Positions 2,917 through 39,079 of a stretch of 44,255 nucleotides of DNA are shown in pieces; position 1 is the stretch's first letter, and the number at the start of each line of letters is the position of its first letter. The notes beneath the pieces were generated by a model. The model made no database searches and was not told where the DNA came from. It worked only from the letters and a program-made list of their open reading frames with translations. A program made the position numbers and the translations under genes. The stretch is taken from IMG/VR virus record IMGVR_UViG_2874920711_000009, positions 1 through 44,255 of that record; one strand, written 5' to 3'. The DNA comes from a virus. Its lineage: Duplodnaviria; Heunggongvirae; Uroviricota; Caudoviricetes.

Positions 2917-2920
2917 TTTA

Positions 2921-4148: not shown

Positions 4149-5258
4149 TCACTCTGTTTCCGCTATCCATTCCGGGATTTTTGCCTCAAGCTCAAGCTGC
4201 GTGGTAAAGCCGCTGTTATCAATGGTGTGCTCGACTTTCGCAATAATCCAGTCCTGATTATCAATCTCGCTTTTAAATCCTGTTACCGTGCCATGCATTT
4301 CGGGGTAGAGTTCTGCGCGTCCACGTGCCAGTGTGATGGAGAACGCTGCGGCTCCGCGTTGTAGCTGCTGCCACTTTGCCGCCGCTGCGCGTCTTGCTGC
4401 CTGCTCGTTCTGATAAGTCTTGCGTAACACAAACACATTGCCTTCCGCGCCTTCCATATAATCACCTTCACGGCTGCTGCTTTTCTCCTTTTTCGGTTTG
4501 GGTGGTTTGCGGCGTTTCACGCTGACTTTTTTCTTTTTCCCATAGTTAAGATCAAGCCAGTAGGCGCGCACCCCCGTATACGCCTCGCGGTCAGCAATGC
4601 GGAACTGATGGCGATCGCCGCTGCTGCGTGTGATGGCGAACGATGGCAACGGCTGGCCCTGTGCGTTCACGCCACCACCTGGCATGATGAATAACAGATT
4701 GCCGCTTTTTACCGTGGTGATTGCGCCCAGCATTTCCGCCATGCGCGTAAGGAAGGACATGTCGCTTTCTTCGGTCTGGTCGGCGTGGTCGATTTCGATC
4801 TCCATCAGCATTTCGCTGATTTGCGGTTTCAGACCGTACCGATGAGCGATGGCAGATACCACGCGCTCAACGGTCACATCATGCCAGGATACTTCATGTT
4901 TAACGTTAAATTCATCCCGAAAATCTGCGCTTCTGGCTGAAACAGTCAGCCTGTCCGGCGGTCATTCGTGAGCGATTTCATCAACAATGTAAGTGCCTTT
5001 TTCTGTCAGCGGTTCTCCTTTCCAGCCAATGAGAACCGTCAGGCGCGCGCCCCGTGGCGGTAGCTGCAACTGACCATCCGCATCATCCAGCGTGATGGTG
5101 AGCTGGTCCGCCTCAAATCCCCGGTTGTCGGTCAGTGACAGGCTCATCAGGCGCTCTGCCACGCCTGACAGCGCTTTACCCTCCGCGAGAATATCAAAAT
5201 CCGGCATTTTCACGGGGTCTGTGCCCTGACTGAGCAATTGCATGGTGGTGTCGGTCAT
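4149..5258 (-). pseudogene. D: tail protein gpD (late control D), frame broken between about 4880 and 4960 as given
   Basis: N-terminal fragment from ATG 5258 (GGGAGG RBS) ends at 4962; C-terminal 242-aa fragment 4149..4877 in another frame. Confidence 0.75.
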
Positions 5259-10498: not shown

Positions 10499-10993
10499 AT
10501 GGCCATGATGATGATCTACGGCATGTTTGTTTTTGAGCTGCGCACGTTGCCGCATCAGCAGTTACAGCAAAACAAAAGCTGGCGACATGTGAAAAATGAA
10601 CGCGTTAACCGTTCAGCAAGCTGGCAGTATATCGGTGCAGGTGATGATCGCATCGTTCTTTCTGGTGTTCTTTATCCTGAGATTACTGGTGGCGAAGTGT
10701 CGCTGTCGTTGTTGACCACGCAGGCATATACAGGACGTCCTTGGCCTTTGATTGATGGCGTCGGGCAGATTTACGGCATGTATGTCCTGACCGGAACGAA
10801 TACGACCCGCTCCGAGTTTGATCGCTACGGTAAGGCGAAAAAGATAGAATTTTCACTGACTCTTGAACGCTGTGATGAGGATTTGCGGGAGCGCCTGCAA
10901 TCCTCATCGTTCAGCGATATGCTGTCCGGCTTCAAAGATAAGGTGACATCATCCCTTAATAGCGCGGCCAGCTCAGTTAAGGGGCTGCTCTGA
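10499..10993 (+). CDS. U: tail protein gpU
   Basis: 164-aa ORF with GAGGAG RBS; MMMIYGMFVFELRT... resembles P2 gpU. Confidence 0.85.
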   Translation: MAMMMIYGMFVFELRTLPHQQLQQNKSWRHVKNERVNRSASWQYIGAGDDRIVLSGVLYPEITGGEVSLSLLTTQAYTGRPWPLIDGVGQIYGMYVLTGTNTTRSEFDRYGKAKKIEFSLTLERCDEDLRERLQSSSFSDMLSGFKDKVTSSLNSAASSVKGLL

Positions 10994-11149
10994 TTTAACG
11001 TATGTCGCCAATTTCCTGATGAAGGTGACTGGCGACTTGCTGTTGTATGTCCTTCTCAGAAAATTGTTTTTGAATAACAAATAACAGGATTTTATAATCT
11101 CTTAACCTTATAACATGTGTGGTCTGAAATAATAATTAAGGAGATTATC

Positions 11150-11722
11150 GTGCTATCTTACTTAATGGCAATTCACTTTGTTTTATTTGGAAACTCTACT
11201 AATTTAAAAAACTTCTGGAAACATGAAGTAATTCGGCGGAAACGTATGGATATCTGGAGGCTTTTAAGAGAGAAAAAGCAGCGTAACCGGAATTTCCTTT
11301 TCTGGTGGCGGTTGGCTAACGAAATGTATATTAATGGTAATAAATTACATAAGAAAGCAGCCAAAAAGTTAAACAGTAAAATAATTAACAAGTTTGGTTG
11401 TGAAATAGGATTGGGCGCAAATATTGGAAAAGGGTTGACAATTCCCCATCATGCTGGAATTGTTGTTCATTTTGCTGTTGATGCGGGTGAAAATCTGGTA
11501 TTACGACAGAATACTACCATTGGACAGATAGATGGTGATATGCCTGGTTCAAGAGTAAAAATTGGTAGTAACGTTGATATCGGAGCTAATTGTTGCATCA
11601 TTGGATTATCACGTAAAATTGGGGATAATGTAAAAATAGGTGCAATGTCTTTTATAAATAAAGATATACCATCAAATTGCACATATATAACTAAAAAGAG
11701 TGGTGTTGTATTGTATAAATAG
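11150..11722 (+). CDS. hexapeptide-repeat acetyltransferase (serine O-acetyltransferase / WcaB-like), low-GC cargo
   Basis: IGLGANIGKGLTIPHHAGIVVH...IG.N..IG hexapeptide repeats; AAGGAG RBS 7 nt before GTG 11150 (ORF track frame opens at 11117); AT-rich. Confidence 0.65.
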   Translation: MLSYLMAIHFVLFGNSTNLKNFWKHEVIRRKRMDIWRLLREKKQRNRNFLFWWRLANEMYINGNKLHKKAAKKLNSKIINKFGCEIGLGANIGKGLTIPHHAGIVVHFAVDAGENLVLRQNTTIGQIDGDMPGSRVKIGSNVDIGANCCIIGLSRKIGDNVKIGAMSFINKDIPSNCTYITKKSGVVLYK

Positions 11723-11729
11723 AGTACAT

Positions 11730-11769
11730 AAAGCCATCGATATTTTTGTCGATGGCTTTTTCTTTTTAT
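11730..11769 (+). terminator. rho-independent terminator
   Basis: 11-bp stem AAAGCCATCGA/TCGATGGCTTT with 8-nt loop followed by a T-run. Confidence 0.55.
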
Positions 11770-12343
11770 TGTGGGGCGACTGGCCACTCAACATCCGCTG
11801 CTACTGTTGTATCAACACGATTCAACAATACCCGATATGTCTTCCATGCAGCCAGTAACGATGCCTCTTCCTCCGTCGCAATATCCAAATCTACGGCATC
11901 CTGAAGTGGCGCAATATGCTCACTGGCTACCTGCATCAGGCTGTTTTTTGTTTCTTCTGCCTCCCGTACCCGAAACAGTTTTTCTGCTTCTGCATCTTTC
12001 GCCCAGGATGTGCCGTTCCACTTCTGACACTCTCCATCCGGCGACAACTAGGTAACATTTTCCGGTAACGGACCGAGTTCAGAAATAAATAACGCGTCCC
12101 CTGATGCCACGTCATAAACAGTTTTACCCCGATGATCTTCAACGAGATGCCACGATGCCTCATCACTGTTGAAAACAGCCACGAAGCCAGCCGGAATATC
12201 TGGCGGTGCAATATCGGTACTGTTTGCAGGCAGACCTGTATGAGGTGGAATGTATGCATCACCTTCCCCAATAAATTCATTAGTTCCGGCCAGCAGGTTA
12301 TAAATTTTTATGGCCGTGATTGTTCACTCATTCTGAAATCCAT
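11766..12343 (-). pseudogene. tfa: tail fibre assembly chaperone (Tfa family), inactivated
   Basis: Body ...[22 protein letters not shown]...[27 protein letters not shown] is Tfa-like; frame break after codon 11 at a T5/A5 run and an in-frame TAG (ENVT*LSPDG) near 12051. Confidence 0.7.
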
Positions 12344-12351
12344 GTTCACCT

Positions 12352-13254
12352 CTACTTAATATCAGAGACAGAATATTGTTTATTGAGCGTATGGGTGGGA
12401 GTACCAATAACGATGCTACTTCCGTGGCTATGTGCGCCAGAGGTGACATTACCTACGGGATTTTCTGGATTAATCCGGTGTATATGCGAACCAGGGCGAA
12501 AACGGTTATTAGCCTGATGTTGTATCAGTACATCATCAGCCTGATGTTCAGGGTTAATACAGACTTGCCCGGAACGTGAGCAACACGTCCGATAATCGCC
12601 GCATCCAATATATTTAGTATCCGCATAACGGCAAACAGAATTACCCGGACAGTATGCATATGTGCCAAATACTGCCGACTGGCGAGATTGTGCGTATTCC
12701 CAGTTAATTGATTCTGTTTTTTTATTAAAGTTATCCCATGCCTGCTTCATCTGTCGTGCAACACTTTCAAACGGCACCTGACCACATCCGGCCCCCATTG
12801 CAGGGAATACCACTGTTTTTATTTTCATGTCTGTCGTTGCGTTTTTATTGTGCTGAAAGATGGCAAGCAGAGCGGCCCAGGTTGCGTTATATACAGCGTC
12901 TGTTCCGTCAATTGTCAACGGAACACGCATTGTTGGCGCATGTACCAGCCAGGGGTGATGATTATGCCCCGTTTCAATGACAAATGCAGAACCTACAGGC
13001 TGTTCGCCGAGATATTCACGAAGAATATGATTCTGAACGCGGGACTGTAACTGAGTACCGAAGAATGCGGTAATGGCGGCATCAACGCCACCATCCATCA
13101 GGCCGAAACTATTTGCCGCACTTACCATGCAGTCAAATTGTCTGATTGTTTCAAATGGCTTTCCGACAATATTCACACTATCTGCATTTGCAAATATCCG
13201 TTTAAATGCTTCAGCCATTTCTGTTACTGGTGCAGAAAGAATGAGCGTAATCAT
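12352..13254 (-). CDS. macro-domain protein with C-terminal Cys/His-rich extension
   Basis: Macro-domain motifs [62 protein letters not shown]; start ATG 13254..13252 overlaps the H stop TGA 13253..13251. Confidence 0.7.
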
Positions 13255-15397
13255 GCAAGCCTCACAATATAGTTAAATGCGATGTTTTTTACGGTGTTTT
13301 CTGCGTTACCCGTAGCGTTAACGGTGATGGTATGCCCGTGTGAACCTATCGCAACGGAGTGTGTGTGTGCACCAATTCCTACCGTATGAGTGTGTGCGCC
13401 AATATTTACTGTGTGAGAGTGCCCCCTGCGTTACTTGTTTTTCCAGTGCCAAGCCCTGAGTTATAACCAGCCGAAACACCATTACCAGCACCAGTGTTAC
13501 CAACAGGAATATTGTGTGAATGATCCCCGGCGCTATTCGTGGTTTTAGTGCCATGGTTAAATGAACTGGACGTCTTGGTACCGTAATCAAACGACGATGT
13601 GGTTTTCGTCCCCAAATCCGTACTGGATGCACTGGCGCTGTGGGTGTGCGATTTAATGCCGTCCTGTTCCTGAGACAATACTGCACGACCACTGGCGGGC
13701 TTGCCCTTAATCGTCCAGCTACGCATATCAGGGATCACGCCTGACGGATAAGCGGCTGCAAGTTTCGGGTATGCAGATTTGTCAAAAGTCTGCCCCTGCA
13801 TCAGGGCATAACCAGACGGAACGGTATCTGATGGCCAAGGGATCGGTGCGCCAACCGGATAAAGTTCATGAGGCGAAATATACAGCGAATAAACAGAACC
13901 GTCCGTTAATCCTTCCGGCTTATTAGCAGAATATGCTGGTGAAGTATGAATCGTTACGCTGGCGTTACTGGTATAATCCCACTGAATATTAACACCTGTG
14001 GCGTAATTACCTATTTCAACATAAACATCATAGGTATCACCGGATGTATTCACCCATGCAAAATTAGTAAATCCAACCGATGTCCGTCGCCATAACGCAC
14101 CAGTAAGACCTTTTGGATTTCCATTTCCCGCACGAAGAACAAGTTCAGATATACCTGCCTGTTGAGGTGACTCTACGTTAAATCCCGCGCCACCAATCAA
14201 CGTAATTGAAACAACAGAACTCGCCTGCGGCATGGTTACCGTTGCTAATTTGAACCAACCAGCACCACCGCTGAATGACATAGTTGTTGAGTTAAGCGTA
14301 CCAATATCTTTCGGCGTCAGTGTAATATCCGCTGAAAGCGCCTTACCATTCACCTTACGGGCAGAAGGTACCCGACCATTCGCATTGTCATTAGCTGCTT
14401 TCACTGCTTTCGGTGTCGCGGCAAGCGTTTCAGATGTGCTGTTAGTCGCGCTGCTTAGCTGGACAATCCCTTTTTGTGCTGTCGTAGCGTCCTGAGCGGT
14501 ATATTTCCCGTTAGCAAGGTCATATGCTGTCTTTACCGCTTTCGGTGTTGCGGCCGGTGCTTCAGACGTGCTGTTGGTGGCGCTACTGAGCTGGACAAGG
14601 CCTTTCCGCGCTGTGGTGGCATCCTGCGCAGTATATTTCCCGTTAGCAAGGTCATATGCTGCCTTTACCGCCATTGGTGTTGCCGCCAGCGTTTCAGAAT
14701 CGCTGTTGGTGGCGCTACTGAGCTGGACAAGGCCTTTTCGCGCTGTGGTGGCATCCTGCGCAGTATATTTCCCGTTAGCAAGATCATACGCGGCCTTTAC
14801 TGCTTTCGGCGTTGCAGCCTGCGTTTCAGACACGCTGTTAGTGTCGCTACTGAGTTGAACAAAGCCTTTTGCGGTCAGCGAGGCGTCCGGGTGACGTCGT
14901 GACTGTTCATGTTCTTTCAGTTTGTCATTCACGTAATCCACTGTGGCCATAACCATGGTGTTATCCACGGTAAGCGCCACGGTGGCAGTGCTGGATACGG
15001 TCAGAATGGTGCGAAATGTTTGTGCACGTCCGGATCCTTCGGCAACGGTTGGTTTGTAACTTTCGGCAGTATTGCCCACCGCGATCAAATCGCCGTGCTC
15101 ATCAAATACACCAATTTCCCGGATCCAGAATCCGCCCGTTTCAGGAGGAATAACCAGCTCCGCAATAATGCGGTTCTGATGTGTTGCGTCCAGGATGACG
15201 CGATTAACAGTATGTCGCCACACCTCATGCACCAGACGGGTCTGCTTACTGTCTGGTGTGGGCAACGTGCCGCCACCGTCGCCCACGGCCATATGAGTCA
15301 GGCGGACAGGATTACCATCTGGCGCGGCAGCCTGAGCTAATTTTTTGGCACCAGTATCAGTGATAATGGTTTTAAATTTTCGTGTTGTGGTACTCAT
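13251..15397 (-). pseudogene. H: tail fibre protein gpH, frame break at a C5/G5 run near 13422..13426
   Basis: 663-aa ORF 13406..15397 plus out-of-frame C-terminus [57 protein letters not shown]; one extra G would restore the frame. Confidence 0.85.
14410..14890. repeat. four tandem copies of a ~114-bp coding repeat inside H
   Basis: Repeated 38-aa unit KG[FLI][36 protein letters not shown] visible in protein and DNA. Confidence 0.7.
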
Positions 15398-20017: not shown

Positions 20018-20038
20018 TGCTACTCCCCCACAACTGAA

Positions 20039-22734: not shown

Positions 22735-23569
22735 TCAGAAGTCAGCCAGCTGGTCGGAGGCAGCGCCCGTTGCGGTGAACCGGTTCTGCGGATCGCCGTC
22801 CTGCGTGCGCAGTTTTTCCTTCAGTGCTGCCAGCTCTGTGGTCAGTAAAGTGATTTTCTGGCTGTCCTGTTGATGGCGGGTTTCCAGCACATTAAAACGG
22901 TCGATAATGTCGGCCTGTGACGTTGCGACACCTTCCACCGCTTCCTGAATACGGGAGAAACTGGCGTCATCCGCTTTGCGTCCACGGCCAATAATCCCAT
23001 AACGCGGTTAAACCACTGGGTGCCTTCTTCCTGACGTTGTTCGGTGAGTTCGATAAGTTCTGACTCCATAGCGGCGGTAAACATCGCTACGTCTCCCTGC
23101 TGACAGTTGAATGTCATCAGTTGCATACGTTGTTGTGCCGCAAAGGCCAGACGTTCCGTGCCCAGGCTGGCAGGGGTGTCGGTCATTGCCAGCCCGCGCA
23201 GGTAAGGGCCTCCCGTGATGGTTGACTGTGGTTCCAGCTCAATACTGGAGTAAATTTTTTTACCATCGTTAAGCAGGGACATCATGCGAGCGGTCGGCTC
23301 AATTTCGGCATACAGTGCCGTGCGACCTGCCAGCGGGCCATCGGTTATGTCTTCGGTGCTCAACCCCACAACATCGCCCATAGCGGAAAACTCGCTGCCG
23401 GGAGTGGTGACAGGATGTGCTCAATATTCACACGTGCACCATAAACGGACGGGTTATAACTGGTGGCGGCAGCTTTCAGCATGTCGCCGTTGATTTCGCG
23501 CCCGTCTGCCGTTACACCGGAGACAGCCACGCGAAACTTTTTGCGGGATGTCTTTTTTTCATTAGCCAT
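22735..23569 (-). pseudogene. O: capsid scaffolding protein gpO, two frame breaks
   Basis: Three consecutive fragments 23360..23569, 22842..23381, 22735..22938 in different frames. Confidence 0.8.
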
Positions 23570-23720: not shown

Positions 23721-25471
23721 ATGATTCAGGACGCTTTTGTGCGCCAGCGTGCGCGGCAACTTTACTGGCAGGGTTATCCGCCCGCAGAGATATCACGTCT
23801 GATGGGAATAAACCCGAACACGATTTATGCGTGGAAAAAACGCGACCAGTGGGATGAAACACCACCCGTGCAGCGTGTTACGCAGTCCATCGATGCGCGC
23901 CTCATCCAGCTTACTGAAAAACAGAATAAAACAGGCGGTGACTTTAAGGAAATAGACCTGCTGACCCGGCAGCTTAAAAAGCTGCATGATGGCCAGCCGG
24001 ATGTGATGGCCGCAGGAAAGAAAGGCCGGGCGAAAAAACTCAAAAATCATTTCACGCCGGAACAGATTGCCGCACTGCGGGAAAAAATCATCAGCAGGCT
24101 GGAGTGGCATCAGCGGGCTGGTTTGACTCCCTGACACTTTGCAGGGAAGCCGGGATACGTAACAGGATGATCCTGAAATCCCGACAGATTGGGGCGACCT
24201 GGTATTTTGCACAGGAAGCTCTGCTGACGGCGCTGCGTGACAATGTGGCGCAACCTTACCAGCGTAACCAGATTTTTTTGTCTGCGTCGCGTCGTCAGGC
24301 GTTCCAGTTTAAAAGCATTATTCAGAAGGCCGCGGCTGAAGTTGATGTGGAGCTGAAAGGGGGCGATAAAATCATCCTCTCCAACGGCGCAGAGCTGCAT
24401 TTTCTCGGCACTTCTGCTGCGTCGGCACAGTCCTATACGGGCAATTTTTATTTTGATGAATTTTTCTGGGTCAGTCGCTTTGCTGAACTGCGCAAGGTGG
24501 CTGGCGCTATGGCAACCCTCAGCGGACTGCGGCGCACCTACTTCTCCACGCCATCCACCGAAACGCACGAGGCATACGCCTACTGGAACGACGACCGCTG
24601 GAACGAGAAAAAGGCCTCGCATAAACGCCAGCGTTTTTCTGTGGACTGGAAAACGCTGCATAACGGGCTTATCTGCCCTGACCGGACGTGGCGGCAAATT
24701 GTCACGCTGGAAGATGTGGTTAATCACGGCTGGAAACACACCGATATTGACGAAATCCGTGATGAAAACACCGAAGACGAGTTCCTCAATCTCTATATGT
24801 GTGAGTTTGTTCGCGAAGGGGAATCGGCATTTAACCTGAATATCCTGATTGGCTGCAGTGTTGACGGATACGACGACTGGAAAGACTGGAAACCTTTTGC
24901 TCCCCGCCCGATGGGGAATCGTCCGGTATGGATTGGGTATGACGCAAACGGCAGCAGTGGCAACGGCGACAGCGGCGCTGTGTCCGTGGTGGTTCCTCCG
25001 GCTGTTCCTGGTGGCCGTTTTCGAACGGTGGAGACGCGACGCGTTCAGGGGCTGGAGTTTGAAGAACAGGCCAGAGTCATTGAAGAGTTCACGTATCGCT
25101 ACAACGTGGAACACATCGGCATTGATGTGACGGGCGGGAACGGGGAGGCTGTTTATCAGATAGTGAAACGGTTTTTCCCTGCTGCTATTCCGTACACCTT
25201 CACGCTGTCATCAAAACGGTCGCTGGTACTGAAAATGCTGCAAATAATGCGTGCCGGGCGGTGGGAATACGATCGCGCCGAACGCGAGCTGGTCGCGGCC
25301 TTTAACGCCGTGCGTAAGGTGAAAACACCGGGCGGCTTTATCACTTACGAAACGGACCGCGCGAGGGGGATCAGCCACGGCGACCTTGCGTGGGCAACCA
25401 TGCTTGCTGTCATTAACGAACCGATTGGCGGCGAAGGAGAAAACGAGCGTTTCACGGTTATGGAGTTCTGA
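23721..25471 (+). pseudogene. P: terminase large (ATPase) subunit gpP, frame break near 24110
   Basis: Fragments 23721..24134 and 24104..25471; divergent from O across a 150-bp promoter region. Confidence 0.85.
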
Positions 25472-26513
25472 TGAGCAGAAAAAATAAAAAAGTGCGCATG
25501 AGTTCACGCATTGATCTCGCTGATGCGCTCAGGAAAGAATCATCGCTCAGTGCATTCACATTTGATGGTCCTTATCGCCTGACCGGGCATGACCTGCTGG
25601 ACAATATGTACTGTGCTGATAACGGACGGTGGTATGAAACCCCGGTGGACTGGTACGGTCTGGCAAGAGCAGCCCGGCAAACGTCCTGGCATCAGTCTGC
25701 GCTTTACTTTAAGCGCAATGTATTACTCGGTTGCTACATCCCGCACCCGCTGCTTTCCCGGCAGGATTTCTCGGCGCTGGCGCTGGACTGGTTTGTGTTC
25801 GGTAACGCATTCCTTGAGCTTAGAAGCAATATGCTCGGCGAACCGCTTAAATTACGGCACGCACTGGCGAAATACATGCGACGCGGAAGCGATCTTGAAT
25901 CATGGTGGTATGTGCAGGATGGCAAGGACGCGTTCCAGTTTCGCCCTGGCAAAGTGTGCCACCTGATGAATCCGGATATTAACCAGGAAATCTACGGCAT
26001 GCCGGAATATCTTGGCGCATTACTCTCGGCCAGCCTTTCTCATTCGGCGGACATGTTCAGAAAACTGTACTACGACAACGGATCCCACGCCGGGTGCATC
26101 ATCTACATCGGTGCAGCGCAGGTAAACCGCGAAAGCATGGACTCCCTGAAAGAAACGTTACAGGGCGCGCGTGGTGGTGCGTTTAAAAACGTGCTCATCC
26201 ATGCGCCCAACGGGGCAAAGAAGGTGTGCAAATTTTGCCGTTCCAGCAGATCACTGCAAAGGATGAGTTCATGAATGTTAAGGCGGCATCCCGTGATGAT
26301 GTGCTGGCTGCGCACCGCGTTCCGCCGCAACTGATGGGGGCGATGCCGGGCGAAAAAAGTGCGTTTGGTGATGTGGAGAAGGCCGCGCGGGTTTACGCAA
26401 TTAACGAGCTGATGCCCGTCATGGAGGCCATGAAGCACATCAATGACTGGCTTGGCGAAGAGGTGATCCGCTTTAACCCTTACGCACTGCTAGATACCCA
26501 GCCCACATCCTGA
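25471..26513 (+). pseudogene. Q: portal protein gpQ, frame break near 26230..26270
   Basis: Fragments 25471..26274 and 26226..26513; start overlaps the P stop. Confidence 0.85.
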
Positions 26514-27001: not shown

Positions 27002-27262
27002 CTATAGCTTTGATGCAGGCTGGGCTAGATGCAAGGGTTGGACATACCAGCCTTTTGATAACCAACTCTCTGCAACCTCTTTACTCCTTGTTATTGCTGG
27101 TATTCCGATGCCGTTATTTACATGCATCCATGCTACTGGCTCTGCTTCCAGTGATACCAGTGCAATTTCATAAGCACGGCGCTCAATATTGTCTCGAACG
27201 TCCAGGCTGCCTATGCGCTCTTTGATTTCTTTAATCAGTTCTTTGTCGGTGAAAGTTGTCAT
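27002..27262 (-). CDS. hypothetical protein (86 aa)
   Basis: ORF track; last gene of tightly packed minus-strand operon. Confidence 0.5.
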   Translation of the reverse strand: MTTFTDKELIKEIKERIGSLDVRDNIERRAYEIALVSLEAEPVAWMHVNNGIGIPAITRSKEVAESWLSKGWYVQPLHLAQPASKL

Positions 27263-27272
27263 GTGTTAGTCC

Positions 27273-27536
27273 TTATCCTGCTGTGCTTTCAACTGATGAG
27301 GGGAACAAAATCTTTTCATCAAACCCTGCATTCATATCATGAACAGCAACACACCAATCCATTGACGAACGATTATCAAGAGCCTCCATGATTTCATCCA
27401 TGTGGCGCAGGTCATACAGGTAAATGCTTTTATCGCCAATGGTGTAAAAACCAATTTTTTTCGGTGATGGGCAGCGATCAAGAACGTCCTGTAATTCATT
27501 CAACCATGCCCGTTCTTTTTTTGTTAAAGTTGCCAT
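27273..27536 (-). CDS. hypothetical protein (87 aa)
   Basis: ORF track; AAGGAG RBS; start 1 nt after preceding stop. Confidence 0.5.
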   Translation of the reverse strand: MATLTKKERAWLNELQDVLDRCPSPKKIGFYTIGDKSIYLYDLRHMDEIMEALDNRSSMDWCVAVHDMNAGFDEKILFPSSVESTAG

Positions 27537-27537
27537 A

Positions 27538-27954
27538 TCACTCTCCTTTGATGCGAATGCCAGTGGTACTCATTCTCCTGATTTCCCAGAGCACACGAGG
27601 AACACCACCGTTTCCGACCGGATCGCGTTTACTCCGCAGGGCGACGCTTGATTCCGCCCAGCTTTTTCTTGGAGGAAGCTCTTTCACACGAACAAAACCA
27701 GCTGCGCGAAGAGATGCTCCTGATTCATCTGCCCGGGTGTACGTAATACAACGTTGATAACCCATAGCTTTTGCTGCCCGCCAGACAGCACCATAAAGCG
27801 CGCTGTTAGCGTTGCGTTCTCCTGTGGTACATGTGCGATTTACTTCAAGCGTTAATCCATCGTCCAAATGTCGTGCAACAGGTCGACCGGCTGTCGCCAC
27901 ACCTATCAATTCTCCGGCATCATTTCTCAGACCAATGCTGAATTTATGCCCCAC
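27538..27954 (-). CDS. hypothetical protein, possible acetyltransferase-like fold; 5' end uncertain
   Basis: GTG start without RBS; a short upstream ORF with AAGGAG RBS (from about 28024) in another frame suggests a frame break at a CCCCGG run. Confidence 0.45.
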   Translation of the reverse strand: MGHKFSIGLRNDAGELIGVATAGRPVARHLDDGLTLEVNRTCTTGERNANSALYGAVWRAAKAMGYQRCITYTRADESGASLRAAGFVRVKELPPRKSWAESSVALRSKRDPVGNGGVPRVLWEIRRMSTTGIRIKGE

Positions 27955-28030
27955 CGGGGTTTATTGTGTCGGTGATGTCTGGATATAAATGCCTTCGCAA
28001 CACGAAGAGTAACCGGTGAAATCTGCACTC

Positions 28031-28345
28031 TCACTCTCCTTTGATACCAATGTTTACAGTCTGGCAAGCTTCTCTGAGCACCCAGTCAACAGCGTCTTTC
28101 CATGCTCCGGTTTCAGTTGGCGGATTCTCACGCTTTACCAGTTCATAGAAACGTACTGCTCTAACCAGTCCATCTGACGGTTTTGCCTGTAGTGCAGCCT
28201 GAGCTATACGGTATGCCTGGAGCATACGGGCGTCGTTGATATCCATTCCGAACGGAATTTCTGATGATCGTGATTCTGCATCTTCAAGCCTGGCAATTTC
28301 TTTACGTAAAAAGTATTTCAACTCTTGTTTTTGTTTTCTGTTCAT
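28031..28345 (-). CDS. hypothetical protein (104 aa)
   Basis: ORF track; start overlaps stop of upstream gene. Confidence 0.5.
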
Positions 28346-28710
28346 GTGTTTTTTCCCTTTTTGTCTGCCACTTCTCTCCTGATAATTTCATTGCACAAAT
28401 CCACGCACTCATTGCAGATGTAAACAGACGGTCCAGCAATCACCTTTGTGACTTCGTACTGGGATTTATTGCAGAAGCTGCAATAAATCGTTTCCTCGCC
28501 TGAAGCCCATGTTTTGCTGGTTTTGCCAGACATCAGTTGTTTGAGGTCTTTTTCACGACGAAGAACTATCTGGCCACATTCAGCTATTTTTTGGATGTTG
28601 ACATTTTCTTCTTTCGCCAGCGCTTCCATCCGCTCAATCAGTCGCTGCGCTTTTTCTCTGTCAATGTGTTGCATTGTGTCCCCTTGTTTATGTTCCCGGG
28701 TTAAAGTCAT
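28342..28710 (-). CDS. small protein with C-terminal ClpX-type C4 zinc-binding domain
   Basis: [41 protein letters not shown] closely matches the ClpX N-terminal zinc-binding motif (CSFCGK...ICDEC). Confidence 0.6.
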
Positions 28711-28736
28711 CAGGGCGGATGCGCCCTGATGTTGTG

Positions 28737-29048
28737 TTATTCGGGAAATAACGCCCGGATATTTCCGGCCATCTGACTGGTTATCTGTGCGGTTGATACT
28801 GGCTGTGATGCGGGGCGTTCTGTCCTGGTTTGTGTCACTGATAACGCCTCATCATCAGCCCATGCAGCCAGTCGGTAAGCCTCTGCCGGATTCATTTTCA
28901 GAAGTGCCAGCCCGGCCAGAAAAGCCACGCGTTGGCCGCTTTTGCGGGCTTCTGGTGTAAGGCTGTCCAGCCAGGCGCATGCTTCGCCTTCGTTCTTGAC
29001 GGCGGCGGGCTTCAGATAGAAACTTATTCGTCTGGTTGGTGTCGTCAT
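28737..29048 (-). CDS. ParR-like partition adaptor
   Basis: Directly downstream of parM homologue; [14 protein letters not shown]...[13 protein letters not shown] resembles ParR; AGGAG RBS before ATG 29048. Confidence 0.5.
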
Positions 29049-29052
29049 TGAT

Positions 29053-30035
29053 TTACTCCTTGTCCATTGCGTACAGCCCATTAACCAGAGCAAACTGTGG
29101 CACCCCGTCCGCGATGAAAGTCGCATTAACTCCGCAGGCTTCGCGGATAGCGGGTGCCACAATCTCCGCTCCTCCACCTACAACCATCACCCGCCCGTAA
29201 CCCGAAAAACCCGCCAGCGCGCGGATCACGCGTTGTTTCAGTGTTTCTTCCTTTTCACGAATAACCGCCATCAGGCTGGCGTAATGTGCGTCATTGTGGA
29301 TGTGCTGGCGCAGCCAGGCTTCATCATGGCGATGTTCGATAATGGTATTGGCGATGTGGTGACTGGTACGCATACCGTTAGTGGCCATCACCGACAGTAC
29401 GGCATCGGCCATCAGGGAAACGCCTACGTGTGGATCGCAAAATACCTGGCTGATACCTGCCAACTGCCCCTGAACCTTTGCCACATCCAGCGTGGTTCCG
29501 CCCAAATCCACAATCAGCAGGGATTCAAACGGACTCATGTCAGCCAGTGTTTTAAAGCCAGTTGGAATGGATTCAGGCATAACCCGTACGTTACGGATAG
29601 TGAATGCTTCGCCGTTCTGGTACTCCACCGGGCGCATAACGTTCGCTTTTTTGCGGTTGATGTTGGCCATGTCCGGCTGTGCGTTTGTGTCGAAATACTC
29701 GCTCAGTGGCAGGGTGACAACCACATCCACCTCCTGTGGCGTGATGCCTGATTTGACCAGCGCGTGATGCCTGATTTGACCAGCGCGTGATGAATGGCAA
29801 TGACATTCACATCGCTGTACTGGTATTGCGTGTCGGTCGTCTGGACAAAGCGATCGCTGACCGGATCAAAACCATAGCGCACGCCATCAAGCATGTAGTT
29901 CGCGGGCTGCGTGCCACCGAACGGCGCAGACCATTCCGACTTGAAGCTGTTCGGGCTGATGGCGTTGCGGCGTTCGCCGTTCTCAGTCCATGCCAGCTTG
30001 ATGTTGGTGGAGCCGTCGTCGATACAAATTTTCAT
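29053..30035 (-). pseudogene. ParM/StbA-family actin-like ATPase, disrupted by a 23-bp tandem duplication
   Basis: MKICIDDGSTNIKLAW...SPNSFK.EW...YSDVNVIAIHHAL and C-terminal LLIVDLGGTTLD, VVGGGAE match ParM; removing one copy of 29741..29763 restores a 319-codon ORF. Confidence 0.75.
29741..29786. repeat. perfect 23-bp tandem duplication (GTGATGCCTGATTTGACCAGCGC x2)
   Basis: Read directly; flanked by GCGTGATG microhomology. Confidence 0.85.
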
Positions 30036-30178
30036 GTCGCTTTTCCTTATGTTGATTAATTAATCGTTTACGGGATTCTGAAATCCCGTTTTTTCCGTAA
30101 GCGCCCCATCAGCGACGTCTTGTGAAAATTGTCCTGTCTGGCAACAATCGCGCCCATCTATATTGATGGACACGAACG

Positions 30179-30781
30179 ATGAATTCCCAGACAACAAAAG
30201 ATATTCCCTGCTTCCGTTCTTATTTGCCTGATGCCCTGCGTTTAAGATTTGAAGATAAACTGACCATCCGGGCCATCGCTCAGCGTCTGGGTCTCAGTCA
30301 TTCCACAATACATACGCTTTTTCAGCGATTTCTTGCATCCGGTATCGCATGGCCATTGCCCGATTCAGTTTCATTCGCTCAACTTGACGCCATCCTTTAT
30401 GCCAACAGAAAGAAGGAATTAACAGAGCCTCAAATCAGAGAAGGCTCATGGCGAAAAGAACGGCGAACCAGCTATAGCCGTGAATTTAAGGTCCGTCTGG
30501 CTAAGCAGGCGTTACAGCCTGGGGCTGTTGTTGCCCGGATCGCCAGAGAACACGATATCAATGATAACCTGCTGTTTAAATGGAAAAGCCAGTACGAGGA
30601 CGGCTTACTGAGCGATGATGACATACAGGAATGCATGCCTGTCCCGGTGGCACTGACTGATACGCCGGAGCCGACCAGACCAGTTACAAATCCCTTCTGG
30701 CGTAACAAGCATGATGAGCGCCCTGAGGGGCTCCCGGAAACGTCCCACGGTGCGAGCTGCATCTTAAATCAGGTGTGGTAA
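30179..30781 (+). CDS. IS66-family TnpA-like protein (HTH)
   Basis: ORF track; 3' end differs from copy B by a G4/G5 homopolymer length. Confidence 0.7.
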   Translation: MNSQTTKDIPCFRSYLPDALRLRFEDKLTIRAIAQRLGLSHSTIHTLFQRFLASGIAWPLPDSVSFAQLDAILYANRKKELTEPQIREGSWRKERRTSYSREFKVRLAKQALQPGAVVARIAREHDINDNLLFKWKSQYEDGLLSDDDIQECMPVPVALTDTPEPTRPVTNPFWRNKHDERPEGLPETSHGASCILNQVW

Positions 30782-30847
30782 AACTGTTTGACCCTCTCAC
30801 TCCGGAACTGTTACGGGCGCTAATCCGCGAAATGAAAGGGGTATCCG

Positions 30848-31195
30848 ATGATAACGCTGCCGACCGGTACCAGAATCTGGATCATCGCTGGCATCACAGA
30901 TATGCGTTGTGGCTTCAATGGCCTGGCTTCGAAGGTGCAGAACACGCTGAAAGATGACCCGTTCTCCGGGCATATCTTCGTCTTCCGGGGCCGCAGTGGC
31001 AAAATGGTGAAAATACTGTGGGCCGATCGTGACGGGTTATGCCTGTTCGCCAAACGCCTGGAACGGGGCCGCTTCGTCTGGCCGGTGACCCGGGAAGGGA
31101 AAGTGCACCTGACGCCAGCTCAGTTATCCATGCTACTGGAGGGGATCGCGTGGCAACATCCCAAACGGACAGAACGGCCTGGCATCCGGATATAA
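30848..31195 (+). CDS. IS66-family TnpB
   Basis: 115-aa ORF typical of IS66 orf2. Confidence 0.8.
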   Translation: MITLPTGTRIWIIAGITDMRCGFNGLASKVQNTLKDDPFSGHIFVFRGRSGKMVKILWADRDGLCLFAKRLERGRFVWPVTREGKVHLTPAQLSMLLEGIAWQHPKRTERPGIRI

Positions 31196-31214
31196 CCCGT
31201 GATAAAACAAGGGA

Positions 31215-32770
31215 ATGAACAATGAACTCCCCGATGATATTGAGCTGCTTAAAGCCATGTTGCGTAAGCAACAGAGTCGGCTTCGACAGTATGCCTGTCA
31301 GGTCGCGGGCTATGAGCAGGAAATTGAACGGCTGAAAGCGCAACTCGACAGGTTGCGTCGTATGTTGTTCGGCCAGAGTTCAGAGAAAAAGCGTCATAAG
31401 CTTGAAAATCAGATCCGACAGGCAGAAAAACGACTGTCGGAACTGGAAAACCGGCTGAACACAGCCAGAAATCTTCTGGAAGATGCATCGTCAGTCACAG
31501 ATTCACCTGACACCAGTCCCCCGTCAGAAAACCCGATCGCCAGTAAGCCTGAATCCCCGGGAGACACATCGCCTTCTGCCTGCTGAAACCAGTTGCCCGG
31601 CCTGTGGAGGTGTTCTGAAAGAAATGGGGAAACAATCTCAGAGCAACTGGATATCATTAATACCGCCTTTAAAGTTATCGAAACCATACGTCCCAAACTG
31701 GCCTGTAGCCGGTGTGATGTCATCGTTCAGGCACCACTTCCCCCTAAACCGATCGAACGCGGTTATGCCAGTGCAGGGTTACTTGCACGGATCCTGGTCA
31801 GCAAATATATGGAACATATCCCTTTATATCGCCAGTCAGAAATATACGCGCGACAGGGCGTGGAGCTGAGCCGTAATACCATGGTGCGCTGGGTATCAGA
31901 AATGGCAGACAAACTCCGTCCTCTGTATATAGCGCTGAATGACTATGTTCTGGAGGCAGGAAAGGTGCACGCAGATGACACTCCGGTGAAAGTACTGGCC
32001 CGGGGAACGGAAAGACGAAAACGGGTCGTCTGTGGGTATACGTCAGGGATGATCGTAATGCGGGTTCATCCCTGCCGGCAGCCGTCTGGTTCGCGTATTC
32101 GGCAGATCGCAAAGGAGAACATCCGCAGCTCCACCTGGCAAAGTATCAGGGCGTACTGCAGGCTGATGCCTATGCAGGTTATAACGTACTGTACGAAACG
32201 GGCCGGGTGAAGGAAGCCGGGTGCCTGGCCCACGCCCGCCGAAAAATCCATGACGAGGATGTGCGCCGTCCGACAGAAATGACTCAGGAAGCGCTCAGAC
32301 GGATAGCAGAGTTATACGACATAGAAGCGGAGATACGTGGCAGTCCGGCAGAGGAACGGCTTGCAGTCAGAAAAGCCAGAAGCGTCCAGTTGATGCAGTC
32401 GTTGTACGACTGGATACAGTTGCAGAGGAAAACGCTGTCGAAATATGCGGAGATGGCGAAGGCGTTCGACTATATCCTGAATCACTGGAATGCGCTGAAC
32501 GAGTTCTGTCGTGACGGCTGGGTGGAAATAGACAACAACATCGGTGAAAACGCGTTACGATCGGTGGCGGTTGGAAGAAAAAATTATCTCTTTTTCGGCT
32601 CAGACAAGGGAGGAGAAAGTGCGGCGATCATCTACAGTCTGCTGGTCACCTGCAAACAGAACGAAGTGGAGCCGGAGGACTGGTTGCGCGAAGTGATCGA
32701 GAAGCTCAATGACTGGCCGTCGAACCAAGTGCATGAACTGCTGCCCTGGAACTTCTCGTCTGTAAAATAA
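31215..32770 (+). pseudogene. IS66-family transposase TnpC, frame breaks at homopolymer runs
   Basis: Fragments 31215..31586, 31593..32210, 32207..32770; copy B has the corresponding 504-aa ORF intact. Confidence 0.8.
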
Positions 32771-32798
32771 TCCTTACGCTACGTACTTCTCGGGGCGC

Positions 32799-35090
32799 TT
32801 ACTTATCAGGCAAAGGCCGCTGCTGTTTGCGGCTCTGTGTCCAGCTCTGCATTTCATCACTGCTGTTTTTTGCCTGTTTGTCACGAAGCGAACGCATCAG
32901 CGCCCGGCGTTCGTGCCGTTTCAGTGAGCGCATCCATTCGTTCACTTCAACGCCGTCAGGGAGCTGCGGCCACGGTGCTGGCCGTTCTTTCGGCTGTTCT
33001 GTCCCGTTGTTGTCCGTTTCCTGTACACGGGGACAGTTATTGCCACGAGTCCAAGGGGCGGCAGGGCCGCCCTGAAGGTCAAAACCATTTTCGCGGGTGC
33101 TGTCCTCCGCTTCCGGTTTACGTCTTACCAGCTTCCAGTTATCCGGATGCGTGCACACACGGGAGGATTCCCCGATGAATGGCGACCAGATCCCGTAAAT
33201 CTGTACACTCTGTTCGCCGTAATCGTTCAGCTCATCTGCGAGGTCGTAGGCTGTGCGAATCAGGTAGTCCTTGCGCGGAACAAGTACGCCACCCTGTTTT
33301 TCAATGTAGGTGGCAAAACACCCGGCATCAGCGGCAGCAAGAACCGCATCCATTGCGTCATCCTTCAGCCGTTGCGGGCCTTCTGGGTTGCGTGCTATCT
33401 GGCTGGCAAGGCGGCGGAGTTCACGCCACACCTGACGGGAGGGGATGCCAAAGAACTGGAACTGGCGGACCCGGTGAAGGCGCGCCCAGCCGATGGCGCG
33501 CTCCACGCTCTCGGCCATTGATTTACCTGTTTCGTGGTCAACGCGTGGCTTGCCCGTTTTCGGGTCGATGCCATCCACGGCGCGGCTGTCCAGGTTCTTT
33601 CCGATGTAGGTGGCGATGTAGCTGGTTGGCGTGCCTTTTGAGCCGTCGACGTACTCCGCCTTAAAGCGTGGGGTAATATCATCACCCAGCTCGTGACGAT
33701 CTTCCTGAATGGCAATATCGCGGGTGTGGGACACAATGGTGTCGATTTCTTCCGGATGAGCAAAGACCATCATATGCCAGTGCACGGTGCCGTCATGGTG
33801 AGGCTCCACCGTGCGGATGCCATACCAGCGCAGGCCGTCGCGGTTCAGTTTCTTGCGGACCGCTGCAAAAAACGTGTTAACCAGGTAATCGCTGGAGTCG
33901 CGCATGGTGGCCCCGTTCCATTTGGGATTCGGATGACTGTTCTCTGTTGTGGCGTGGTATTTTGACGGGCAGGTGACAGTCAGAAACACCGCTTTGTCGC
34001 CACGGGCTTCGGCCAGAAGTTCCAGCCCCTTCATGGTGGCCATCATTTCTGCCTTACGGTGAACCGGGTTACTTACTCCCGCGTAATACACTGTCTCGAG
34101 ATCAATCGTGAACCCGTCTTCGTTTTCCAGCATGAAACTTTTCAGGAAATCGCGTGTTTTCTCGCGCTGTGCGCGAAACTCGCTTAACGCGTCCTGGCTC
34201 AGATAGGGTGATGTTTTTCTGGAAACCAGACAGGCGGCGCGGAGTTGTTCTTCTCTCCACTCGCAACGTAACAGCCACAGTTTGCGTTTCCACCATTCCG
34301 CACAGGTCAGGCGAAGGATTGCGCCCGGCAGCAGCTCCGTGTCCGGTTCGTTCCTCCGGTCTTTGTCTGTTGTCAGTGCGTCATAATGTGGAGGCATGGC
34401 GTGCAGGTGTAACGCCATGCGGGCCAGCATCTGATACGCCTTCAGCGTTACATCCATGGTCAGTTCGCCATCGGTCGCGCCAAAGCCATCGCAGAGTTTT
34501 TCGAAGGTGCTGCTGAACATCGCCGCCGTCATGGTGGCCAGCGTCTGTATCTGGTGTTTGTTGAGCTGCGGCAGGTAAAGCAAATCGTCCAGGCGTTCGC
34601 GTCCGGCAAGGGAGCGATAACCCGGTGTCAGCCAGTGTCCGTCAGTGCGATCCAGACGTTCGAATATTTTGCGCAGGGTTCCGCGTGCATAGCGTTCCGC
34701 CTGCCAGCTCTTTTTGCCTTTCCGGCGATCGGCTTCCTGTTTTTTGCGCAGGAAGGAGAGGTGGCGAATAAGCGGATCGCGCAGATAGGACGGCAGCAGG
34801 TGCAGCGAGGCCATGGCTTCATCCACCGCGCCGCGTGCCTGTTTTCTGGCGTCTCCTGCCAGTGTGATGGTTTTGTCCTGTTTTTCCTGTGCGTCCAGGC
34901 TTTTATTAATCAGGTTGCCCAGCGGCGTGGCGGAGAACGCCGCATTAGCCATTTCCTGGCGGCGCTCGTTCTCTACCCGGTAGGCATCCAGCCAGGAGGA
35001 AAGCACGGATTCAGGAGCGGGGATCCCCGTTCCTTCACGCCCCACTGCGTGGCGCGGTTGTTGCCAGTCCCTGATGTACTCTGCCGTCAT
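32799..35090 (-). CDS. A: rolling-circle replication initiation protein gpA
   Basis: 763-aa ORF of gpA size and character; stop codon TAA is formed by the IS66 terminus (G-TAA-GCG). Confidence 0.85.
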   Translation of the reverse strand: MTAEYIRDWQQPRHAVGREGTGIPAPESVLSSWLDAYRVENERRQEMANAAFSATPLGNLINKSLDAQEKQDKTITLAGDARKQARGAVDEAMASLHLLPSYLRDPLIRHLSFLRKKQEADRRKGKKSWQAERYARGTLRKIFERLDRTDGHWLTPGYRSLAGRERLDDLLYLPQLNKHQIQTLATMTAAMFSSTFEKLCDGFGATDGELTMDVTLKAYQMLARMALHLHAMPPHYDALTTDKDRRNEPDTELLPGAILRLTCAEWWKRKLWLLRCEWREEQLRAACLVSRKTSPYLSQDALSEFRAQREKTRDFLKSFMLENEDGFTIDLETVYYAGVSNPVHRKAEMMATMKGLELLAEARGDKAVFLTVTCPSKYHATTENSHPNPKWNGATMRDSSDYLVNTFFAAVRKKLNRDGLRWYGIRTVEPHHDGTVHWHMMVFAHPEEIDTIVSHTRDIAIQEDRHELGDDITPRFKAEYVDGSKGTPTSYIATYIGKNLDSRAVDGIDPKTGKPRVDHETGKSMAESVERAIGWARLHRVRQFQFFGIPSRQVWRELRRLASQIARNPEGPQRLKDDAMDAVLAAADAGCFATYIEKQGGVLVPRKDYLIRTAYDLADELNDYGEQSVQIYGIWSPFIGESSRVCTHPDNWKLVRRKPEAEDSTRENGFDLQGGPAAPWTRGNNCPRVQETDNNGTEQPKERPAPWPQLPDGVEVNEWMRSLKRHERRALMRSLRDKQAKNSSDEMQSWTQSRKQQRPLPDK

Positions 35091-35765: not shown

Positions 35766-36087
35766 GGTGTGGCCCCTTGTGTAGTAAGTTGTGAAAACTC
35801 ACCATCCAGAGCTGCGAAACTGTGGGTGGCGAGACGTACGAGGTTCGCAGTACCGGCTACACAAGAACCCGGCCCGACCGAAGTCGGCCCCGTACGCCCC
35901 GCCATAATTCTGACGCGAAAAAAACGTAGCAATACAGTACGCACAAAAAAACCGCTGGCGCGGTTGTGCGCTTGTGTAGTCAGCAGGCTGCGAAACCCGG
36001 CACCCGTTTTGTGAGGTGCAGCGGAAATGTAACCTGACTGATTGCGGCATGGCAAGCGGTTTTTTTGTGTGTGCATGTTCTGGTTTC

Positions 36088-38173: not shown

Positions 38174-39079
38174 CTATATTTCCAGACATCTGTTATCACT
38201 TAACCCATTACAAGCCCGCTGCCGCAGATATTCCCGTGGCGAGCGATAACCCAGCGCACTATGCGGATGCCATTCGTTATAATGCTCGAACGCCTCTGCA
38301 AGGTTCTTTGCTGCCGTTAACCCGTCTGGTTTGGGCATGATACTGATGTAGTCACGCTTTATCGTTTTCACGAAGCTCTCTGCTATTCCGTTACTCTCCG
38401 GACTCCGCACCGCCGTGTTCTTCGGTTCAAGTCCCAACATCCGGGCGAACTGGCGTGTTTCATTAGCCCGGTAGCATGAACCATTATCCGTCAGCCACTC
38501 CACTGGAGACGACGGAAGATCGTTGCCGAAGCGGCGTTCCACCGCTCCCAGCATGACGTCCTGTACTGTTTCACTGTTGAAGCCGCCGGTAGTCACCGCC
38601 CAGTGCAGTGCCTCACGATCACAGCAGTCCAGCGCGAACGTGACACGCAGTCTCTCTCCGTTATCACAGCAGAACTCGAACCCGTCAGAGCACCATCGCT
38701 GATTGCTTTCTTTCACGGCCACTCTGCCTGTATGTGCCCGTTTCGATGGCGGTACAGCAGGTTTTCGCTCAAGCAACAGCGCATTCTGGCGCATGATCCG
38801 GTAAACACGTTTGGCATTAATCGCAGGCATACCATCAAGTTCTGCCTGTCTGCGAAGCAGCGCCCATACCCGACGATAACCATACGTGGGCAGCTCTCCG
38901 ATAACATGGTGTATACGGAGAAGCACATCCGTATCATCAGTGTGACGACTGCGGCGGCCATCCATCCAGTCATCGGTTCGTCTGAGAATGACGTGCAACT
39001 GCGCACGCGACACCCGGAGACAACGGCTGACTAAGCTTACTCTCCATCCCCGGGCAATAAGGGCGCGTGCGCTATCCAC
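38174..39079 (-). CDS. insD: IS2 transposase OrfB
   Basis: 301-aa IS3-family transposase with DDE region. Confidence 0.9.

Follow-up and report, generated by a model that had tools for sequence, protein, structure and literature searches.

The centromere of the plasmid R1 partition system ParMRC consists of ten 11-bp iterons, and phage replication of the P2 type gives monomeric circles. An actin-like protein also acts on phage DNA in the CGP3 prophage, where AlpC and its DNA-binding adapter AlpA are required for efficient viral DNA replication (PMC4446434 and PMC5539076, in the portions available), a functional precedent for a role beyond plasmid maintenance. Within the P2 family, Rousset et al. 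2022 (PMC9122126) defined a hotspot between gpA and gpQ, and the accessible parts of that survey report that roughly one in four P2-like phages has a partition system. The present analysis concerns such a locus, at positions 27,002 to 30,096 of IMG/VR record IMGVR_UViG_2874920711_000009 (the window, meaning the whole stretch of 44,255 nucleotides analysed here), in which homologues of parM and parR lie with five small genes between the replication gene A and the cos region. A preliminary description, made from the letters alone, had taken the interval for an eight-gene cargo operon in a locus known to carry anti-phage functions in P2-like phages. Comparison with intact relatives indicates instead that it is the distal end of the early (replication) unit of a P88-like prophage, composed of a fixed parMR layer and a swappable array of 'ea'-type genes, a reading to which a probability of roughly 0.8 is attached.

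Organization of the operon

The window is 100% identical to NCBI CP026824.1, and the operon region has 96-97% nucleotide identity to the phages PhiR44_2 and P88 and to a prophage of Escherichia coli UTI89. The window carries a P88-like prophage (Xuanwuvirus, Peduoviridae, P2 family) riddled with insertion sequences (IS). The genes of interest form a packed minus-strand string running from 30035 to 27002, and an intrinsic terminator (26991 to 26969, minus strand; a 9-bp stem and then ATTTTAAT) closes it before the cos region, in agreement with the earlier proposal of a tight minus-strand operon ending at a hairpin. UTI89 carries the terminator at the same site. In order of transcription, the string comprises a parM pseudogene (30035 to 29053); parR, encoding a StbB-type adaptor of 103 amino acids (aa) (29048 to 28737; PF10784, E 3.8e-24; phrog_2515, E 3e-58); a gene for a 110-aa protein with a ClpX zinc-binding domain (ZBD) (28674 to 28342; PF06689, E 3.7e-18); p104 (28345 to 28031; phrog_26213 and phrog_660); an XF1762-family gene with a Mom-related GNAT fold (28028 to 27538; in two pieces here, 163 aa when intact; NF045478, E 1e-60); p87, encoding a small alpha/beta protein (27536 to 27273); and p86, with an Ead/Ea22-like N-domain (27262 to 27002; phrog_5117, 660, and 60). 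Pfam matched all three of the genes that had been called ParM-like, ParR-like, and ClpX-zinc-finger-like, and neither Pfam nor NCBIfam gave a meaningful match for p104, p87, or p86.

Two details of the gene models needed revision. The 46-aa and 138-aa open reading frames (ORFs) that had been counted as separate genes are the halves of one XF1762-family gene, split near 27956 by a 1-nt loss in a run of five G residues, so the operon has seven genes rather than eight; and the start of the ClpX-ZBD gene, previously placed at 28710, is moved to 28674. The UTI89 set is intact throughout (ParM, 319 aa; ParR, 103; ClpX zinc finger, 110; hypothetical protein, 104; XF1762, 163; and two further hypothetical proteins of 87 and 86). 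Successive genes are separated by 4 nt, 62 nt, a 4-nt overlap, 2 nt, 1 nt, and 10 nt, so that the overlapping or 1-10 nt spacing described before holds everywhere except in the 62-nt spacer between parR and the ClpX-ZBD gene. This spacer contains a perfect palindrome with 10-bp arms (28708-28731), at what proves to be the boundary between conserved and variable sequence. A consensus scan of the coding strand from gene A to the terminator found no sigma-70-like promoter, Rfam and tRNA scans gave no match inside the operon, and the P2 cos 19-mer was not found in the window with up to 4 mismatches allowed.

A conserved partition layer and a variable array

The order A-parM-parR is the same in P88, P884B11, 520873, 569R5, Chuche, Shae_phiSM, PhiR44_2, and UTI89, with a spacer of 76 bp between A and parM (about 100 bp in Chuche) and 4 nt between parM and parR. 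ParM is 94-99% identical in all 14 of the 14 P88-like phage records, and still 97% identical where gene A falls to 82-85%. Among 5,426 complete E. coli genomes, 1,307 (about 24%) contain parMR, and 1,453 of the 1,455 places where it occurs are chromosomal. Because of this shared order, high ParM identity, and wide presence, parM and parR are a core gene pair of the lineage, fixed in every Xuanwuvirus record examined.

After parR the content differs from phage to phage, consisting of a ClpX zinc finger gene with one to four small genes, a gene for a 196-aa protein, or genes read from the other strand, and homology to other Xuanwuvirus phages stops at the parR stop codon or just beyond the 62-nt spacer. 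The whole five-gene cargo of the window occurs in only 30 of the complete E. coli genomes, and fragments of it occur in 2,099. The variable slot proper therefore runs from the parR stop codon to cos. The earlier view of the entire interval between A and cos or portal as variable cargo is right in that this is a known P2-family hotspot, and wrong for parM and parR, which do not vary; those two genes are common throughout the lineage, which is largely the outcome that the preliminary description had itself named as a refutation.

The arrangement is an ordinary one and has been listed before. Table S5A of Rousset et al. 2022 (PMC9122126), in the portion available, lists the UTI89 seven-protein set repeatedly by accession (WP_000686511, WP_000211273, WP_001163786, WP_001080499, WP_001167297, WP_000224227, and WP_000206716). 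In the literature found on Xuanwuvirus biology there are only passing mentions, and the paper on P88 does not discuss the partition genes.

The ParM and ParR proteins

Pfam recognizes StbA_N and ParM_N in the parM of the window, although this copy encodes no full-length ParM. The gene is divided into a 110-aa ORF (N-terminal fragment, 30035 to 29703) and a 225-aa ORF (C-terminal fragment, 29730 to 29053) by a 23-bp tandem duplication (29739-29784; GCGTGATGCCTGATTTGACCAGC twice) that causes a frameshift, which confirms the suggestion that parM would need repair before any experiment. The intact 319-aa ParM aligns over its full length with R1 ParM (E 2e-92) and keeps the nucleotide-binding motifs for phosphate and adenosine (DDGSTNIK, DLGGTTLD, and GGGA). 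As expected of a small downstream adaptor, parR starts 4 nt after parM, and its product can be aligned with the ParR proteins of R1 and D6, including the N-terminal strand and the C-terminal tail; a PDB sequence search with ParR returned chance matches only. Outside the genus, the closest phage homologue of ParM is that of phage D6 (48%), a 91-kb record whose annotation mentions P1-like genes and partition proteins, which we take to be a phage-plasmid. Iteron-like TCTCA repeats lie upstream of the D6 homologue.

One allele departs from the general conservation. In Escherichia albertii (segment L014, 4965-5276), ParR is only 53% identical to the UTI89 allele, beside a ParM that is 98% identical and upstream palindromes that are identical. 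The divergence lies mostly outside the first ~15 residues, a pattern that suggests an exchange within parR.

Palindromes upstream of parM

In intact relatives, two 42-nt direct repeats straddle the stop codon of gene A (UTI89 segment L003, 10546-10660), each containing a perfect 8-4-8 palindrome (ACGGGATT-N4-AATCCCGT) and each encoding ...TGF(T/Q)NPVN(E/D). The chance expectation for two 20-bp palindromes 73 bp apart is 0.04, and these palindromes are put forward as a candidate ParR centromere (parC). The window retains 61 bp of the A-parM intergenic region (30036..30096, minus strand), which hold the proximal 20-bp palindrome (ACGGGATTCTGAAATCCCGT, 30070-30089), the only copy left; the second palindrome of the intact relatives is located 73 bp further upstream, inside the end of gene A.

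The accessory genes and their junctions

The ClpX-ZBD protein begins with a segment of 58 residues (1-58) without a family match, after which residues 59-104 align with the ZBD of E. coli ClpX (1ovx, E 2.5e-19) at about 80% identity as counted from the alignment. All four cysteines are kept, as is the F16/I46 hydrophobic patch, which in ClpX docks adaptors and substrates such as SspB, RssB, trigger factor, and lambda O (PMC7804408). No AAA+ module was found in the 110-aa protein, the match being limited to positions 6-52 of the 414-position model. Full-length relatives are restricted to prophages of Escherichia and Salmonella and to phage-plasmids of the D6 type, and the D6 relative is located in an Ead/Ea22 array. 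No literature was found on free ClpX ZBD proteins encoded by phages. A free ZBD captured from the host could titrate SspB, RssB, trigger factor, lambda O, or MuA, with the effect that ClpXP is reprogrammed or that rival phages dependent on ClpX are excluded.

The XF1762 family is very large, with over 5,000 matching proteins at E<=0.001; among the 120 matches listed, identities are 71-99% and the hosts are mostly Enterobacterales. Both halves of the gene in the window match phrog_1384, 'Mom-like', and the XF1762 match to it (E 1e-30) covers only positions 47-173 of the 245-position profile. The AlphaFold2 model of XF1762 (mean confidence, pLDDT, 83.8) has as its top Foldseek match the Mom protein of phage Mu (8bv8, E 1e-8, TM 0.71), followed by generic GNATs. 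The score against the Pfam Mom model (PF25680) is below the gathering threshold (22.1 bits against a cut-off of 27.1), and a PDB sequence search with XF1762 gave chance matches only. Mom is a Gly-tRNA-dependent DNA aminoacyltransferase that needs R111, S124, R151, and a helix-turn-helix (HTH)-like insertion (PMC13219725). In an hhalign alignment to Mu Mom that is weak (probability 3%) and served only to line up motifs, the equivalent of R111 (R67) is invariant in XF1762, as is a nearby serine (S78); no clear equivalent of R151 was found in XF1762, and the long HTH-like insertion (175-209) is replaced by a conserved basic loop of 26 residues. XF1762 is a sister family of Mom and not a Mom orthologue. 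No literature on XF1762 was found. As a short sister family of Mom it could modify nucleic acid, with a donor or target unlike that of Mom.

The remaining three genes belong to a pool that is shared with other phages. The p104 protein is 94% identical to P88 gp20 and 59% identical to 689R5 hyp119. The p87 protein is 95-100% identical to products of VSe13 and 689R5 genes that follow an Ead/Ea22-like gene ending in GIRIKGE* and that lie in the 'ea' regions of a lambdoid and a P22-like phage, and p86 has 58% overall identity to the 146-aa 'Ea22 protein' of 689R5, rising to near-identity over the first ~42 residues. On these similarities p86 and p104 are classed as Ead/Ea22-like.

The p104 C-terminus carries a junction that includes a ribosome-binding site (RBS). 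Its 15-mer, ATCAAAGGAGAGTGA, occurs exactly twice in the window (chance expectation 0.05), once at the end of p104 (28031..28045, minus strand), where it provides the RBS for XF1762, and once at the end of XF1762 (27538..27552, minus strand), where it provides the RBS for p87. These are the positions at which shared ...IKGE* tails had been reported. More than 120 IMG/VR contigs carry the same 15-mer where one gene meets the next; the upstream partner is a p104-type C-terminal domain at 106 of 118 junctions, and at least 24 gene families follow it, including p87 (20 cases), XF1762 (6), and a gene resembling that for the ClpX zinc finger (2), with the next start codon usually 1 nt past the stop. 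In P88, gp20 is p104 joined at the junction to the last 8 residues of p86. Given this recurrence and the gp20 fusion, the modular cassette assembly suggested in the preliminary description is correct, and the cassettes come from a lambdoid early accessory pool.

Condition of the copy in the window

Two classes of damage have to be distinguished in this copy. In the cleanly aligned parts, the insertions and deletions (indels) that separate the window from UTI89 are mostly 1-nt losses in G/C homopolymers, and the others are gathered in a divergent stretch at 23072-23490. Comparison with UTI89 and with the sister assemblies CP027027.1 and JAAOUC010000094.1 places such 1-nt errors throughout the window (e.g., at 20025, 23578, 24115, 26212, 26541, 27956, and 28680). 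The differences between the sister assemblies and the window are almost all gaps, and XF1762 (163 aa), portal (347 aa), and terminase (583 aa) are all intact in both. The two IS66 copies of the window, which are described below, likewise differ from each other by seven 1-nt changes in homopolymer length, in both directions and without a single substitution (30727-31999 in copy A). The homopolymer pattern and the intact sister assemblies show that the frameshifts in XF1762 and portal are assembly errors; for XF1762 this is almost certain, and the frameshifts of the terminase and IS66 transposase genes are false as well. That the frameshifts of XF1762, portal, and the IS66 transposase reflect real decay was considered and rejected on the same grounds. 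Several apparent pseudogenes of the window are thus homopolymer errors, and the source assembly CP026824.1 looks unpolished.

The damage to parM and gene A is of another kind. The 23-bp duplication, present in three independent assemblies, and the junction with IS66 are shared by all three and are therefore real. An IS66-family element (copy A, 30097..32802, plus strand) begins 61 bp before the ATG of parM and lacks a target-site duplication (flanks TTTTTTCC and TTATCAGG), both as stated in the preliminary description. Copy B is inverted (40507-43213, minus strand) and has an 8-bp duplication (ATTTCTCC). The alignment of the window to UTI89 runs to 30093 and restarts at 32803, omitting positions 10576-11128 of the UTI89 segment; the 553 bp replaced by copy A comprise 18 bp from the A-parM spacer and 535 bp from the 3' end of A. 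The lack of a target-site duplication at copy A is explained by this deletion beside the element. An inversion between the two inverted IS66 copies was considered as the cause and rejected, since gene A and the early genes keep the UTI89 orientation and a simple 553-bp deletion is seen.

What remains of gene A (32799..35090, minus strand) encodes 762 of the 940 native residues and ends at a stop codon inside IS66. It contains the Phage_GPA domain (E 1e-130), its residues 1-762 are 97.6% identical to UTI89 A, and the truncated protein of 763 aa, found on 52 contigs, has exactly the sequence of proteins named from Shigella dysenteriae 155-74 and 1012. The unit in the window is a fossil within an IS-rich Shigella genome: parM and gene A are dead, and the distal palindrome and the link to the early promoter have been removed.

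The full-length A protein of P88-like phages (UTI89 segment, 10594-13416) has 940 aa compared with 761 aa for P2 A, which aligns to its residues 77-800, so that the lineage has a specific C-terminal extension of about 140 aa; it is this extension that the IS66-linked deletion removed. A stretch resembling the nick region of the P2 origin (about nt 2021-2058 of gene A) is still present.

Interpretation and alternatives

The order is A, parM, parR, the ClpX-ZBD gene, p104, XF1762, p87, p86, terminator, and cos; if the interval is the distal end of the early unit, parMR would be transcribed with gene A by read-through from the early promoter. The first layer is a type II actin-like partition module homologous to that of R1/NR1. 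ParR would bind at centromere-like sites, for which the two palindromes straddling the end of gene A are the candidates, and once the phage has infected a cell or been induced, ParM filaments would shift its circular genomes or draw them apart, which would resemble the AlpC and AlpA system of CGP3, rather than serving long-term upkeep of the phage as a plasmid. The second layer consists of five small early accessory genes taken from the 'ea' pool of lambdoid, P22, and D6-like phages, exchangeable through short RBS-containing junctions that act as recombination joints. Their roles would most likely be in host takeover or counter-defence, with the ClpX-ZBD protein as a decoy for ZBD-dependent adaptors and substrates and the Mom-related GNAT as a nucleic-acid or protein acyltransferase.

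A number of observations weigh against parts of this scheme. The missing promoter was sought by consensus scan alone. The palindromes resemble plus-strand intrinsic terminators facing against the operon, and the 42-nt repeat also duplicates the coding end of gene A (KQTETGFTNPVNE and KQAKTGFQNPVND), so that it could be left over from the recombination event that joined parMR to gene A. The repeats of a divergent Serratia relative are different and unrelated, and the E. albertii ParR, at 53% identity, retains the same N-terminal strand and is accompanied by the same palindromes. The p87 protein folds confidently and has no structural relative that could be found. Finally, an early or lytic role in preference to one in the plasmid state is something we infer, and the functions of the cargo are deduced from folds and domains only. 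For parMR in intact phages, early or lytic positioning is favoured only tentatively, at somewhat less than even odds; maintenance in a plasmid state is unlikely, and the remainder goes to some other function. It is doubtful that the full combination holds, in which the ClpX ZBD decoy and XF1762 are unstudied host-manipulation proteins and ParMR positions the phage genome in the early phase through a centromere that extends over the end of gene A.

Three other explanations of the interval have to be weighed. The operon, or its variable half, might be defence or exclusion cargo like P2 old and tin, expressed from the prophage and protecting the lysogen. Its location in the cos-proximal A-Q hotspot, the home of many validated defence systems, would suit this, as would the variable content after parR and the protease- or ATPase-type genes at other StbA/StbB loci in the table of Rousset et al. 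(PMC9122126, in the parts available), and the ZBD decoy might block ClpX-dependent phages such as Mu. PADLOC, however, gave zero matches for the seven proteins; the cargo lies on the strand of gene A without a predicted promoter, whereas old and tin of P2 converge and are read from their own mapped starts; and all five cargo genes come from a pool of early lytic operons of lambdoid, P22-like, and D6 phages, the Mom-like fold among them being linked to counter-defence and not to defence. The active systems named in the accessible text of Rousset et al. 2022 (DUF4238, a three-gene system, DprA-PRTase, AC1, and old-tin; PMC9122126) do not include the present arrangement, and tblastn with P2 tin, old, and orf91 found no match, as the preliminary description had expected for tin and old. 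An anti-phage cargo is considered very improbable here.

That ParMR keeps P88-like phages as low-copy plasmids, exactly as ParMRC keeps R1, was proposed by Rousset et al. (PMC9122126, in the portion available) and fits the full-length homology to R1 ParM and the position of D6 as nearest homologue outside the genus. It is nevertheless decidedly unlikely: only two of the 1,455 copies counted in complete E. coli genomes lie outside the chromosome, the window has an integrase gene at its end, and the module sits in an early operon behind the rolling-circle initiator A, with no theta-type replicon seen. Least probable of all, to the point of being nearly negligible, is that the whole interval is meaningless junk of a dying prophage in any host. 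The dead parM and gene A of the window, its four IS elements, and the gpD-homologous ORF that matches only the C-terminal two-thirds of Phage_GPD all look like decay. Intact versions nonetheless persist in about 24% of the complete E. coli genomes, as well as in the viable phages P88, PhiR44_2, Chuche, and Shae_phiSM, ParM is better conserved than gene A, and the cargo ORFs are intact in the sister assemblies. The junk explanation is contradicted for the family and true only of parM and gene A in this copy.

As a broken version of an arrangement that many E. coli and Shigella prophages share and that a published survey lists, this copy carries little weight of its own. The useful outcome lies in the corrections, namely that the slot begins after parR and that the cargo is an 'ea'-type array with no recognisable defence system. 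The intact relatives raise the questions of why about a quarter of complete E. coli genomes hold a plasmid-type actin segregation module in an integrating phage, what role a host-derived ClpX zinc finger plays in a phage, and what the very widespread XF1762 does. All three are directly testable in P88 or UTI89.

Other features of the prophage

Beyond the terminator lies the portal gene (25471-26513). The prophage shows heavy decay of the kind typical for Shigella. In addition to the IS66 copies, an IS3-family element (38174-39447, minus strand) and an IS630-like (DDE_3) element (1016-2047, minus strand) are found in or beside it, and the latter adjoins a VasI-like (type VI secretion) ORF and a zinc-ribbon ORF (2131-3253, minus strand) that lie outside the structural genes. 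The gpD-homologous ORF (4149-4877) covers only positions 87-304 of the Phage_GPD model. A 663-aa minus-strand ORF (13406-15397), probably the tail-fibre gene, contains three imperfect tandem copies of a 132-bp period (14376-14869; 79-82% identical). Rfam matches comprise an IS009 RNA (191 bits) in a low-GC stretch (GC 0.37) of the tail-gene region (11803-12001, minus strand) and, in the part of the early region that lies upstream of gene A, close to a gene for a 'derepression protein', a C4 antisense RNA (35822-35909, minus strand, 83 bits) and an isrK Hfq-binding RNA (35945-36019, minus strand, 64 bits), the last two above their gathering scores. The C4 and isrK matches suggest that this P2-family phage has a circuit of the P1/P7 c4 type, based on antisense RNA and serving immunity or anti-repression. 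A P88-like segment (portal 99.7% and ParM 97% identical) is also present in NZ_JBQPOM010000071.1, a record labelled Vagococcus sp.; in this Gram-positive genus it is probably contamination or a mislabelled assembly.

Comparison with known systems

The closest catalogued counterpart is the A-Q content given as 'StbA + Plasmid_stab_B + zf-C4_ClpX + 4 hypotheticals' for UTI89 (UTI89_RS04530-RS04555) by Rousset et al., which has the same seven genes in the same order and position at about 97% nucleotide identity. The copy in the window differs from the UTI89 locus by the 23-bp duplication in parM, by IS66 with its 553-bp deletion, and by frameshifts due to assembly error. In P2 itself, orf91, tin, and old occupy the same slot between gene A and cos, and orf91, like the operon here, is a same-strand appendage of gene A; tin and old, in contrast, are convergent and have their own promoter, and the operon described here has no homology to any of the three.

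With R1/NR1 ParMRC (stbAB), the P88-type module shares ParM homology, the ATP-binding motifs, an adjacent ParR/StbB gene, and repeats in the upstream DNA. Unlike the plasmid system, it resides in an integrating phage of the P2 family, directly behind the rolling-circle initiator gene A, and its upstream space of only 76 bp offers as a candidate centromere two 20-bp palindromes, one of them inside gene A, where R1 has iterons. The CGP3 system of Corynebacterium (AlpC, AlpA, and alpS) resembles it in that an integrated prophage carries an actin-like ATPase and a DNA-binding adaptor that work on viral DNA (PMC4446434 and PMC5539076, as far as available), a likeness that is functional only; the host and the phage type are different.

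The array behind parMR has its counterpart in the 'ea' (Ead/Ea22) region of lambdoid and P22-like phages, which shares p87, p86, p104, and the ...IKGE* junctions at 93-100% identity and in which ClpX zinc finger and XF1762 genes occur after the same junction. There, p87 and its neighbours adjoin integrase and recombination genes, whereas here the array stands behind parMR in a P2-family early operon. XF1762, finally, has the GNAT fold and the R111 equivalent in common with Mu Mom (8bv8; PMC13219725), and differs from it in having a core of about 154 aa compared with the 231 aa of Mom and in lacking the insertion that is essential for momylation.

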